Assembly: GCA_964016885.1 (NCBI GenBank)
Contig: CAXHJY010001404.1
Span: 124,001 to 188,000 of the forward strand
Direction: 5' to 3'
Source of the DNA: Eledone cirrhosa
Lineage: Eukaryota
Length of the DNA: 64,000 nt
Shown in pieces: positions 5,821 to 43,185 of this stretch (positions are counted from its first letter, which is position 1; each line of letters begins with the position of its first letter). A program made the translations under genes and the position numbers. The notes under the pieces were generated by a model that did not search any database, had not been told where the DNA came from, and saw only the letters and a list, made by a program, of their open reading frames with translations.

Positions 5821-6229
5821 ATATTGTTATACTTTGGGAGGGTCATGTTGCCAATAAGAAACACACGCACCAGTTGCTTTCACTTCAATTTCACTGTGTG
5901 ACACACAGAGAAACAAAATGGCGTAGGATAGAAGAAAGGAAAGGCACAGAAACGAAGAAAGGAATCCCCAGTCACTGAAGAGGTCACAGAGTGTGTGACG
6001 AAAGGACTATGACTATATATAAACAACTATCTGGTTGTGGAACCAACCAACCAACCAGAAATTTATAAGTTTGTAAATTTATAAATTTATAAATATATAA
6101 TAAATTGAAGTGAAAGCAACTGGTGCGTGTGTTTCTTATTGGCAACATGACCCTCCCAAAGTATAACAATATCGGTTTCAACACACGATTTCAGATAAAG
6201 AATCTTGCTAAACAAATTCAGAAACGAAA
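5821..6229 (+). mobile_element. Fold-back non-autonomous element (PLE-terminal-repeat-like, family H1) with hammerhead ribozyme
   Basis: Perfect 71-bp inverted repeat 5821-5891/6102-6172, unpaired tail 6173-6229, TA tracts on both sides, hammerhead core in the spacer. Confidence 0.8.
5970..6014 (+). ncRNA. Minimal type I hammerhead ribozyme motif
   Basis: agtca CTGAAGA g-gtcaca gagtg tgtgac GAAA g ga c TA tgact: stem I agtca/tgact, stem II gtcaca/tgtgac, very short stem III. Confidence 0.75.
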
Positions 6230-6296
6230 TATATATATATATACATATACATATATATATATACATATACATACATATATATATATATATATCCCT

Positions 6297-6430
6297 TTAC
6301 AGTCTGAGTTCAAATCCTGTCGAGGTTGGTTCACTTAGCCTTTCATCCTTACAGGGTCAATAAAATAAAGTACCAGTGATGTACTGGGTAATTGCTGGCC
6401 TTGTGCCAAAAGTAGAATCAATTATTGTTA
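6297..6430 (+). mobile_element. 5'-truncated SINE family 1
   Basis: ctgagttcaaatcc...cctttcatcc...taaaataaagtaccag...ggccttgtgcc, matching the 197-414 copy. Confidence 0.7.
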
Positions 6431-7022
6431 TTTATTAACCTGCCAAGGTTAACTAAAAAAGGTTCCTGTATGAGCAAGGCATGGTCAGCCAACCAGACAC
6501 TGCCCACAACAGGGCAACCCGTCTAACCCATGCTAGCATGGAAGAACGTACGTAAAACGGTGATGATGATGATGAAAACTGTAGTTGTCTGTGTGTGTGT
6601 GTCCTCATTTTTGCAAAGTCTATACAAATCCACATTTCTACTCCGATTGACTTCAAACTTGCATTTATATATTCCTTGCGGTCTAAAGATATTAACTGCA
6701 GCCTTTATTTTTCAATGTTCTGTTGTTAAAGGAGTGTTAGGCGACGGTTATCGATCTCCGTAGCGCTCTTATAATATCTGTCTGTATGCCTGGCTGCCTG
6801 CATTACGACATTCTGACGAACATTGATGACGTATTATGTTCGCTATTATCCTTTCATGGAACATCTTTACGAAACAAAGTATCGTCTTCCTGTTTTCCTT
6901 CGGTTGCAACGTTTTTTGAAATATTTACTTCTGCGTTCACAGCTTGATGTTTTTAGTTTCAGAAGATCCCGTTAAGGGTGAAAGCAACGATTCTTTGCTT
7001 AAACTTTAATCTGTTATTTTAA

Positions 7023-7539
7023 TCTATATATGTATATATATAAAACTGAGGAAGGATGTTAGTATGTTTGTATGTGTGTATATGTGTGTGTTTTGGGTGA
7101 AACCCGAGAAGTGCCCAACCGATTTTTTTCAAACTTTACATGTGTATTACTTATGTTTCAGGGAGTGTTACTTTTTGATCCCCTTGGGCTCGGATTAAGT
7201 GAAAACTGCGTTTTTTCAGCTTTTTAGGGGGTTTTTTAGGCGTTACATCAGACCGATTTTCTTGAAATTGTAACTATCTATTGGTCAGTCTCTTCTTCAT
7301 ACCAAGAGCAAAGAAAATCCAACTTTTTTATGGCCTAGGGCCTGCATTAGGTGAAAAACTTCATTTTTCAGCGTTTTAGGGTTTTTTTGAGGAAAATCTT
7401 AAAGATTATCCAGCCATCAGAGTATTCGGTTTATTTTCTTTACATATTGTCCAGGCATGCAGGTTTTCCACAATTAGGTCTATTGGCGTCCCGCGTTCCA
7501 AAATACCTTATCCCATGCCACGCCGGGTACCACTGCTAG
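7023..7539 (+). mobile_element. Non-autonomous Helitron-like element
   Basis: 5' TCtatatat...taaaactgag followed by a GT-rich stretch; 3' subterminal GC-rich imperfect hairpin cccatgccacgccggg, then ...ctgCTAG; no TSD seen. Confidence 0.7.
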
Positions 7540-7560
7540 CGTATATATATATATATATAT

Positions 7561-40709: not shown

Positions 40710-41120
40710 CTATTTGTGAGGTATATGTGTATTGTTTATAAGGTATGTGTTTTGCTTGTGAGATTCACATGTAGTGTTTGATATAGATATGTACTGGTTG
40801 TGAAGTACATACGTACTGTTTATGAGGTACATATGTACTGTTTGTGAGGCACATATATACTGTTTATGAGTTATATATGTATTGCTTGTGAGTTACATAT
40901 ATACTGTTTATGAGGTGCATGTGTACTGTTTGTTAAGTACCTATGTACTGTTTGTAAGCTATGTATATATTGTTTGTGAGGTAAATATGTATTAGCTGTG
41001 AGATACATATGTATTGGTTGTGGGATAAATATGTACTAACTGTGAGATACATATGATACAGGTTGTGGGGTACATTTGTACTAATTGTGAGGTACATATG
41101 TACCACTATGTTTGTACTGT
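40710..41120. repeat. ~22-bp minisatellite
   Basis: Units of the form tgtgaggtacatatgtactgtt. Confidence 0.8.
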
Positions 41121-42239
41121 TGGGTCCTGCATGTAGATTCCCCCCTTTACCAAGAAAGGTTCTGTCTGTTTTAACAATGACTATTACAGTTATCAAGTTA
41201 TTTTATAGTTTAAGTGGCTGAGTATTCCACAGATATCTGTACCCTTACTATAGCCCTCAGGCATAATCAGTATATACATACATTAAACATTAAGGTATAT
41301 ACATACAATAGACACTACAATATATACATTCTAGCATGGAAAAATGGACGTTAAACGATGATGATAATGATATACACATTAAACATTAAAATATATACAT
41401 ACATTCAACAGTCAATTATATACATACATTAGACGCTAGAATATATACATATATTTGACATTGAACTTTATACATACATTACACAATATATACACACATT
41501 TGGCAGTATACAGACACATTAGACAGTAGAAAACAACCATTTCTCTGCCTATTCCATTAAATAGTCACTAAGAGCAAGTTGGTCAGTATCATTACTTGTC
41601 TTCACACTTTTTCCTCCACAACCTTTGATTGGAAACACTTCATAACACAAAATTTCACTGACTCCACCCCTAACTCTTCTCATTGTGTTGCCCAGAATTA
41701 GTTTCTAAAACAGTTTGCATCCGTGGTAGCCCTTCTAGCAGTTTTCTCCAGTGTTAGTATCTCTTAAAATGTGCTGCAGTTATGGCCTTTCTAACAGTGT
41801 GTTCCAGTGTTTAGTTGGAGAAGGAAGAACAGTGCATGTGACCCTTTTCAGGGCTTCTGAGACTGGTGTGAAGGAGGAAGAAATGCGTCTTCAAACTGAA
41901 GACCTGTCCCAAATGCTTGCAACAGAATGGACTCTGGTAAAATTAGCCATAGGCCAGATGGTACTGTTAAACTGGGTAATGGATTAAGTCTACCACTAAG
42001 GTAGACCACAGATTAAGTCTTCCACCCATGTAGGCCACAAACAGGATTAAAACTCAGAACATAAAGAGCCAAAACAAATATGGCAAATCATCTTGTCTGA
42101 CACTCGAATAATTTTGTTAATCAACTTCCCTGGAACAGTATTTTATTTTATCAACCCCCAAAGGATGAAAGCAAAGTTGTTCTAGACAAGATTTGAACTG
42201 AGATCACAGCAAATCAGAACAAATACCACAAGGCAATCT

Positions 42240-42422
42240 CTTGAGGGTTTTAATGATAAGGACCCCTAGCCCTTATATGTCTTTTGAGTGGTTTAATGTT
42301 AATGCTCCCTGCCCTTTCATGTCATTTAGAAGTTTTAATTATAGTGACCTCAGTCCTTTCATACATTTAGATGTTTTAATGATAGGGACCCCAGCCCTTT
42401 CCTGTCCCTTGAGTATTTTAAT
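42240..42422. repeat. ~40-45-bp degenerate tandem repeat
   Basis: Recurring gttttaatgata.ggaccc..gccctt units. Confidence 0.6.
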
Positions 42423-43089
42423 CTCAGAATGCACAGAGACTGGAGGTACTGCAGAGCATTTTAACAGTTCTGTTAATTCACCATTCCTGCAAGGGTGATA
42501 GGTAAAGTTGTCCATGGTAGGATTTGAATGAAGAGAGTCAATACAAACACATTTTATTCAGTGCTCTAACAACTCTGCCAATAGACATTGTTTAATGTAG
42601 ATTGGATGTTTTGAATATTTTTTATTTACAGAAGGGCTCCTTCAACTTCATAATACTCTTCTTTCTAGTTGTAACTTGTCCTCACTTTAAATTTACCACG
42701 TATCTCTGTTAAGGAGTGGTGGAGGTGGCGGGGTATATATTTTTCTGCAGACACAAACTTGAATATATAGTCATTTACATGTTGTAGTTGTTGTTGGTGG
42801 TATCAGCCCTGATCAAGGAGACCTTAGATCAAAGACATTTCAGCTGTGACCCATATTTTTTGCCAGATATAGTGTGTGTGTGTGTGTGTGTGCGTATCAT
42901 CATCATCATCATCGTTTAACGTCTATCTTCCACGCTAGCATGGGTTTAGATATATATATATATATATACATACACACATATATATAACACATGCTAGCTT
43001 GGAAAAATGGGCGTTAAATGGTGATGATGTGTGTGTATTTATATATATATATATATATATATATATATATATATATATATATATATATA

Positions 43090-43185
43090 CTTGTTACTCT
43101 GGAGTTTCACCTGTGCACTCACAGGTTTTGTCTGATGATCCTCTGGTATTAAGTACTCATTCTCATATCTGTCAATATTATACAG
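43090..43185. mobile_element. Rearranged family H5 hammerhead element
   Basis: Minus strand 43090-43125 = cctgtgagtgcacaggtGAAActccagagTAacaag; plus strand then reads ttttgtCTGATGAtcct; follows a TA tract. Confidence 0.65.

Follow-up and report, generated by a model that had tools for sequence, protein, structure and literature searches.

The 64,000-nt stretch of the Eledone cirrhosa assembly GCA_964016885.1 analysed here (contig CAXHJY010001404.1, positions 124,001 to 188,000; hereafter the window, to which plain coordinates refer) contains short fold-back elements of six sequence families, A to F, which share a layout bounded by (TA)n on either side, with a head-to-head inverted repeat followed by a one-sided tail. 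These elements are probably very short insertions of endonuclease-bearing Penelope-like elements (PLEs) into (TA)n, made of two complementary DNAs (cDNAs) that were primed near the 5′ end of the element mRNA, covered only its initial 100-400 bases and were joined head to head. The short copies, here called stubs, are probably by-products of PLEs and not a new class of ribozyme elements; they represent new families of known PLE clades, and the phenomenon is real and mostly explained.

Four families continue into Penelope-like open reading frames

Copy statistics were taken from 30 position-ordered genomic copies each for families A and B and from 30 loci for family E, and family C was sampled from bystander copies. 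In families A to D, four of the total of six, longer genomic copies continue into open reading frames (ORFs) with Penelope-like reverse transcriptase (RT) and GIY-YIG endonuclease (EN), which supports the abortive PLE insertion into microsatellites put forward in the original prediction; for families E and F no such ORF was reached. At least 13 of the 30 family A copies run upstream into a GIY-YIG ORF, the family A tail consists of the first codons of that ORF, and the direct arm of the window's family A stub (5892..6228) is 98.8% identical over 328 nt to the ORF-linked copy at locus L016. Family B joins a frameshifted ORF at L165 and the EN end at L164, and over 135 nt the window's family B stub and the pseudo-long terminal repeat (pLTR) of the latter show 100% identity. 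Family D joins ORFs at L146, L147 and L149, and family C does so at two independent loci.

The ORFs linked to family A carry a CX4CxxC linker and a CCHH motif in the EN, as read from their translations, so by these motifs the family A parent is Neptune-type, the marks used being shared by Neptune and Nematis and not telling these two clades apart. The ORFs of families B, C and D have DKT, a CxCX5C linker and CxxC/CxH around the E/N residues of the EN, with no CCHH, and their parents are placed in the Hydra clade by motifs; RWR replaces RWK in families B and D. Atlas look-alikes carry RT and GIY-YIG families (scores 0.95-0.98). A homolog search returned 139 relatives, none informatively named.

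Families E and F have the same layout as families B and C, together with a common tail word, TTGAGT[AG]CT. Two candidate parents of family F were rejected, since L259 is without F sequence and the Hydra-type ORF at L263 is a separate insertion. Upstream of the F copy at L260, a decayed coding-like segment (positions 2900-3550; VLWDEAIL...ICTSHLE) is reminiscent of a phosphodiesterase gene and is possibly host sequence carried by the element.

Outer ends are fixed and centres vary

All 30 family B copies have a tailed arm ending at +137/138, and in 23 of the 24 fold-backs the inverted arm ends at +60 (numbered from the A of TTAGTC). In family A, the tailed arm ends at 0 to -3 of the 3′ end in 30/30 copies and the inverted arm at -56 in 13/14. 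TA adjoins the end in 29 of 30 copies in each of the two families; target site duplications are indistinguishable inside (TA)n targets. The centre of the fold-back is variable, with 22 distinct junctions among 23 parsed family B fold-backs, joined by overlaps or fillers of a few bases, and variable centres also in families A, C, D and F. Among the same 23 fold-backs, the tail-less arm is the longer in 10, the arms are equal in 5, and the tailed arm is the longer in 8. Either arm may thus be the longer, so one self-folding cDNA would be insufficient and two cDNAs of one source, joined at microhomology, would suffice; in particular, snap-back of a single tailed cDNA was rejected because it cannot produce family B fold-backs with a longer tail-less arm. 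The paired arms share sequence variants, and in six long fold-backs they differ at 0 sites (five cases) or 1 site (one case) per 1.2 kb, compared with 0-3 between loci.

Exact tail or core patterns matched the 3.0-Gb assembly 7,904 times for family A, 5,750 times for a family B subfamily and 1,646 times for family E, with 0 matches to the reversed controls. A fixed family B unit, suggested by 40/40 identical matches with one junction, proved to be due to query bias and was gone in the position-ordered sample. At L033, L040 and L045, which lie on different contigs, the same family B stub has the same flanks and the same neighbouring family D piece, a larger repeat having carried the stub along.

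Copies pile up at a 5′ boundary

Of the 30 family B copies, 21 stop between -4 and +6, six are shorter and three are long; none stops between -5 and -539, and two of the three long copies lie 2.7 kb apart. Compared with uniform truncation inside the stub, this pile-up has a P of ~1e-18, for an anchor chosen after the fact. Bystander copies stop at -10 to +15 in 26 of 35 cases for family B and 14 of 26 for family D, query-biased family D matches being excluded from this count. For family F, 40 of the 52 values (113-117) were dropped, as another repeat is apparently inserted in the reference L260, and 8 of the 12 retained bystander values fall at 0 to +5. Family E copies, judged by eye, mostly begin near AGTCTTGT, directly before the core. 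In contigs of one public sample, summed depth (which is no copy number) drops ~8-fold exactly at the family B boundary, and loose ends occur at both outer ends.

The boundary reads YYANW in each of the four families for which upstream sequence is known (B, C, D and F), YYANW being the consensus of the transcriptional initiator (Inr). A TATA-like word is located ~29 nt upstream of the family B boundary, outside the stubs. The boundary differs from the ribozyme cleavage site and lies ~85 nt (C) or 130 nt (F) upstream of the ribozyme.

Double priming on sense RNA as the likely origin of the stubs

These ends would be obtained if the PLE protein started one cDNA from either side of the target break, at two fixed internal positions of an ordinary element mRNA that lie close to its 5′ end, the distance between the positions giving the tail. 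Both RNA-templated cDNAs would extend as far as the transcription start, run off there and be linked head to head by microhomology. Since the start sites lie in the early ORF or 5′ untranslated region, every mRNA made from a pLTR promoter would have them 60-330 nt from its 5′ end, and priming there would permit copying only to the cap, giving a stub; in read-through transcripts, priming at the same two sites as they recur in the downstream pLTR would yield long copies. The ribozyme would travel along uncut. The boundary is off the cleavage site, is 85-130 nt from the ribozyme in families C and F and is present in the ribozyme-less family B, and therefore the ribozyme appears to be a passenger in the stubs. 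In vitro, the PLE of an anole cuts AT-rich DNA on both strands and extends both, with two internal RT starts defining the tail and uncleaved RNA being used, according to the accessible text of PMC11167929; the two fixed ends of the stubs match these two starts.

Several observations weigh against this account. Taking the boundary as a transcription start is an inference from end pile-ups and Inr-like words, with anchors picked after the fact. Only 5 of the 30 family A copies stop at the candidate site (-313 to -327), the others being spread, and only 8 of 31 family C bystander copies stop at -10 to +15, with 20 shorter and 3 further upstream, a low count that is partly due to alignments breaking between subfamilies. 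The public-sample contigs come from a single sample that may be the assembly's source, and the identity of the long arms could partly come from assembly polishing. A Pfam search with six parent ORF pieces found no family, and the window's RT ORF gave only a weak match to RVT_1 (E 1.7e-4). Finally, family E yielded 0 long copies and no ORF-bearing parent in its 30 loci, and family F had no ORF in six long loci.

Stubs in the window

Inverted repeats were located by self-BLAST of the window. Local repeats were found at 5821-5891/6102-6172, 10327-10402, 14250-14365, 20470-20724, 23971-24115, 33082-33353 and 33365-33755; they adjoin or sit between TA runs and have one-sided tails of ~56-130 nt, and the arms of older stubs have diverged to 81-96% identity. 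The elements and their hammerhead motifs are as follows.

5821..5891, minus strand: family A stub, tail-less inverted arm, beginning 56 nt inside the 3′ end
5892..6228, plus strand: direct arm of the family A stub, ending in a 56-nt tail (6173-6228); corresponds to the 3′ pLTR end of a Neptune-type PLE
5970..6016, plus strand: minimal type I hammerhead of the family A stub, intact and uncut in the DNA (descriptor match 5975+)
6822..7032, plus strand: lone family D arm without tail; variant core CAGAAGA at 6959
10327..10458, plus strand: minimal family A stub, 38-nt arms and tail, without hammerhead
14250..14442, plus strand: family B stub; 14250-14365 is a perfect fold-back with a 2-nt loop, and the tail runs to 14442; putative Hydra-clade pLTR end; no CTGANGA
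17892..20179, minus strand: 5′-truncated Neptune-type PLE of 2.3 kb, tailed end at 17892, RT ORF 18576-19868
20448..20866, plus strand: family C stub; the inverted arm spans 20448-20590, the direct arm 20590-20772 and the tail 20773-20866; putative Hydra-clade pLTR end
20673..20733, plus strand: type I hammerhead of the family C stub with palindromic stem III loop (descriptor match 20678+)
23885..24116, minus strand: family D stub; the tail spans 23885-23970 and the two arms 23971-24042 and 24043-24115; putative Hydra-clade pLTR end; variant core
26622..26712, plus strand: decayed family E stub with the core of a hammerhead at 26637; no parent ORF was reached
33082..33220, plus strand: second family F piece, tail only, tail-to-tail with the main family F element across a TA run
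33235..33751, minus strand: family F stub, tailed arm 33601-33235 (minus; hammerhead 33479), tail-less arm 33602-33751 (plus; hammerhead 33640); no parent ORF found
43090..43175, plus strand: family E fold-back carrying an internal deletion; each arm has one half of the hammerhead

The common architecture of the original prediction is therefore supported as far as TA-flanked inverted repeats with one-sided tails are concerned, but the hammerhead is not general and some elements are incomplete: the full layout ascribed to 6959 and 26632 is absent, the former being a lone tail-less arm and the latter decayed. The element at 17892, described as short and non-coding, is the tailed end of the truncated PLE with its RT ORF. 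This PLE has a mutated hammerhead near 18135-18170 (GAAA to AAAA) and an RTE fragment inserted at ~18380-18570, and its relatives are a young family in which ORFs are 1204-1217 aa long, tandems measure 4.1 kb and fold-backs of the same layout have arms of up to several kb. A very young Neptune-type family was seen on contigs C1, C2 and C7 (L091-L103), with many near-identical 1217-aa frames containing an Asn-rich segment, in tandem and fold-back insertions whose arms differ by 0-3 bases per 1.2 kb. The fold-back assigned to 33082 (33082-33353) is a tail-to-tail repeat across a TA run, the head-to-head family F element being the one at 33235-33751.

The high density of elements that had been remarked on is borne out for three families. 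From the genome average, 0.17 (A), 0.12 (B) and 0.04 (E) exact matches would be expected per 64 kb, and the window holds 2, 1 and 1, respectively, so that it is enriched for these families. This enrichment fits repeated insertion into TA tracts supplied by LINE (long interspersed nuclear element) and PLE ends, and nesting of insertions was observed.

Hammerhead motifs

A type I hammerhead descriptor matched the window four times (5975+, 20678+, 33640+ and 33479-), compared with 0.08 matches on average, and never more than one, in 60 dinucleotide shuffles. The statement that most elements contain cores was overstated, as the descriptor finds an intact canonical motif in three of the ten listed elements (5821, 20445 and the family F element beside 33082). 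Of the family E elements, 26632 keeps the core with a weakened stem I, and 43090 has its halves separated by the deletion. The family D elements at 23971 and 6959 have a CAGAAGA core and a 3-bp stem II, and the elements at 10327 and 14254 have no CTGANGA. By family, the pLTR contains a hammerhead in A, C, E and F, a variant in D and none in B. Nearly all direct arms of family D have CAGAAGA instead of CTGANGA, with stems I and III intact, and this may be a natural core variant or a dead ribozyme. A candidate hammerhead in family B, where GAAA-stem-TC is present, was rejected because, in four long copies, CTGANGA was found neither within the stub part nor in the 400 nt upstream of it. An Rfam scan of the window (114 matches at E<=5) did not list a hammerhead; it did give sub-threshold microRNA (miRNA) matches.

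Stem covariation across copies, named in advance as a test, is present in family C. In 20 of 23 distinct motifs aligned (three near-duplicates were excluded), 97.9% of cells pair, and three pairs are changed on both sides, giving 19 such cells compared with 7.2 +/- 2.7 in shuffles, a difference inflated by relatedness. A relaxed motif scan of the examined loci, a biased sample, gave 229 matches, of which 131 are distinct, in many families. At L258/L256 (C2:1951100-1955800), a tandem array of ~629-nt units, each containing a type I hammerhead with a long stem III, lies inside a family C insertion and resembles a retrozyme-type array.

Alternative explanations

Stubs could be self-renewing, that is, PLE-derived units that keep the start site and an internal promoter, are transcribed, and are re-copied in trans with the hairpin being rebuilt, in the manner of a non-autonomous short interspersed nuclear element (SINE). 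Such a cycle would suit the ~9:1 excess of stubs over long copies in family B (27 of 30), its 5,750 tail matches and family F, which has an ORF-less ~1.9 kb tandem at L264 and no ORF in the long loci described above; the accessible parts of PMC2377424 and PMC8557442 describe, respectively, a D. virilis Penelope with an internal promoter and downstream element and putative non-autonomous Chlamys PLEs. However, the identity of the window's family B stub to the L164 pLTR makes a separate stub lineage unneeded, positions +1 to +6 are often deleted at junctions, the family B TATA-like word lies outside the stubs, and a stub transcript would form a long hairpin (-120 kcal/mol for B). We regard self-renewal as unlikely, and are similarly doubtful of its extended form, in which stubs renew themselves, families E and F are orphan non-autonomous families, and tens of thousands of loci supply long hairpin RNA against PLEs.

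An improbable variant keeps the PLE origin and takes the 5′ boundary as a processing site, for example a 3′ splice site, or as an RT stop at an RNA structure. The boundary does coincide with the outer edge of stem I in families D and E and reads pyrimidines plus YAG in B and D, and the D. virilis intron ends at helix I in the available text of PMC4209133. In contrast, the boundary stands well upstream of the ribozyme in C and F and occurs in B without one, it is not the cleavage site, copies end once the 5′ strand of the helices has been copied, no common upstream exon is found at the boundary, and bystander family B copies often include -1 to -4.

Retrozyme-like retroelements spreading as fixed units via circular RNA, the second option of the original prediction, are very improbable as an explanation of the stubs. 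The minimal hammerheads are real and show covariation, retrozymes have been argued to originate from pLTRs (bioRxiv 10.64898/2026.07.22.740005, as far as its accessible text goes), and the window's family B junction or its mirror form has 573 matches; however, 573 is ~10% of 5,750, and this microhomology-favoured junction is one among many. In the families tested, junctions vary by copy, so the unit is not fixed; window elements hold one motif or two inverted ones, with no direct tandem of ribozyme units; the hammerhead motif is uncut; and family B is without a core. Families E and F, whose ORF-bearing parents were not found, could still be retrozyme-like units.

DNA miniature inverted-repeat transposable elements (MITEs), fold-back transposons or assembly chimeras, to which the long inverted arms and TA flanks might point, are scarcely credible: the ends are asymmetric, which disposes of symmetric terminal inverted repeats with a matching transposase, the centres are variable, RT-EN ORFs are joined in four families, the arms of older stubs have diverged as given above, and the public-sample contigs have the same ends and junction-type loose ends.

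Other features of the window

The window is rich in (TA)n and in RTE-type LINE copies. The latter are located at 1792-5268 (plus strand), with a 1158-aa open frame containing endonuclease, RT and a PHD-like finger, and at 11366-14228, 15013-17575 and 8590-9879 (minus strand); their (ATG)n ends adjoin TA tracts used by PLE stubs. A degenerate (TA)n tract of 1.8 kb occupies 55165-56992, and a short minus-strand frame with C2H2 zinc fingers at 52940-53365 is likely the end of a LINE-type element. Tiny remnants of the family A tail-less arm start and the family C arm end lie beside TA runs at 8565-8576 and 10244-10274, and further small, unassigned fold-backs occur in or beside TA tracts at 26227-26294, 26718-26812, 42904-43029 and 20370-20399.

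Significance and comparison with known systems

The origin of the inverted pLTR and tail of PLEs is still unsettled, and the genomic record left by thousands of young stubs speaks more for double priming on sense RNA than for self-priming on antisense RNA. The stubs predict each family's transcription start to within a few bases and show that ribozyme cleavage is not required for insertion. Hairpins of this type are prone to being misfiled as MITEs, miRNA precursors or retrozymes. The parts of the elements themselves belong to known clades.

The following comparisons refer to the accessible portions of the papers cited. The elements resemble insertions of EN-containing (EN+) PLEs (PMC3846280, PMC8557442) in having a 5′-truncated copy with an adjacent inverted copy and a tail on one end, a junction palindrome, tandem pLTRs, an N-rich ORF segment and an Inr-like word in the pLTR (TCACT in PMC3846280), and in the tail of family A reaching into the first codons. 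They differ in that tails are 56-130 nt here and 30-40 there, and that ORF-less stubs with one boundary dominate some families here (as in B). The published account ascribes the junction to self-priming with an antisense template; the symmetry in arm length found here points to two cDNAs instead. The parents of B, C and D share DKT, CxCX5C, CxxC/CxH, the absence of CCHH and (TA)n targets with the Hydra clade of C-terminal EN+ PLEs (PMC8557442), in which RWK and canonical hammerheads throughout are described; RWR in B and D, the lack of a hammerhead in B and CAGAAGA in D are differences, and C is canonical. PAc, a Poseidon element of Anolis (PMC11167929), likewise has two tail-defining internal start sites, an AT-rich target, extension of both strands and no need of cleavage, but it belongs to another clade, the start sites here are 56-130 nt apart, and the inverted arm and run-off stubs are not modelled there.

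The motifs are like the minimal hammerheads of metazoan PLEs (PMC4209133) in being type I, with an extra base after A9, palindromic helix III loops and many families per genome. Opposite-strand hammerhead pairs 100-700 bp apart were ascribed in that paper to truncated PLEs, and such pairs are linked here to start sites and a 5′ boundary that are fixed. Metazoan retrozymes without long terminal repeats (PMC7229834) are also short, non-coding, type I and likely PLE-related, but occur as direct tandems of canonical units yielding circular RNA, whereas the motifs here are single or inverted. Active PLE families are listed in a repeat annotation of Octopus, whose accessible text does not contain the word "ribozyme" (PMC13282606). 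A literature search that covered few subscription papers and no supplements found the layout, the hammerheads and internal initiation described, and found no start-site-bounded stubs. The insertion layout is thus already known, and the pile-up at the start site is a modest, testable addition to it.

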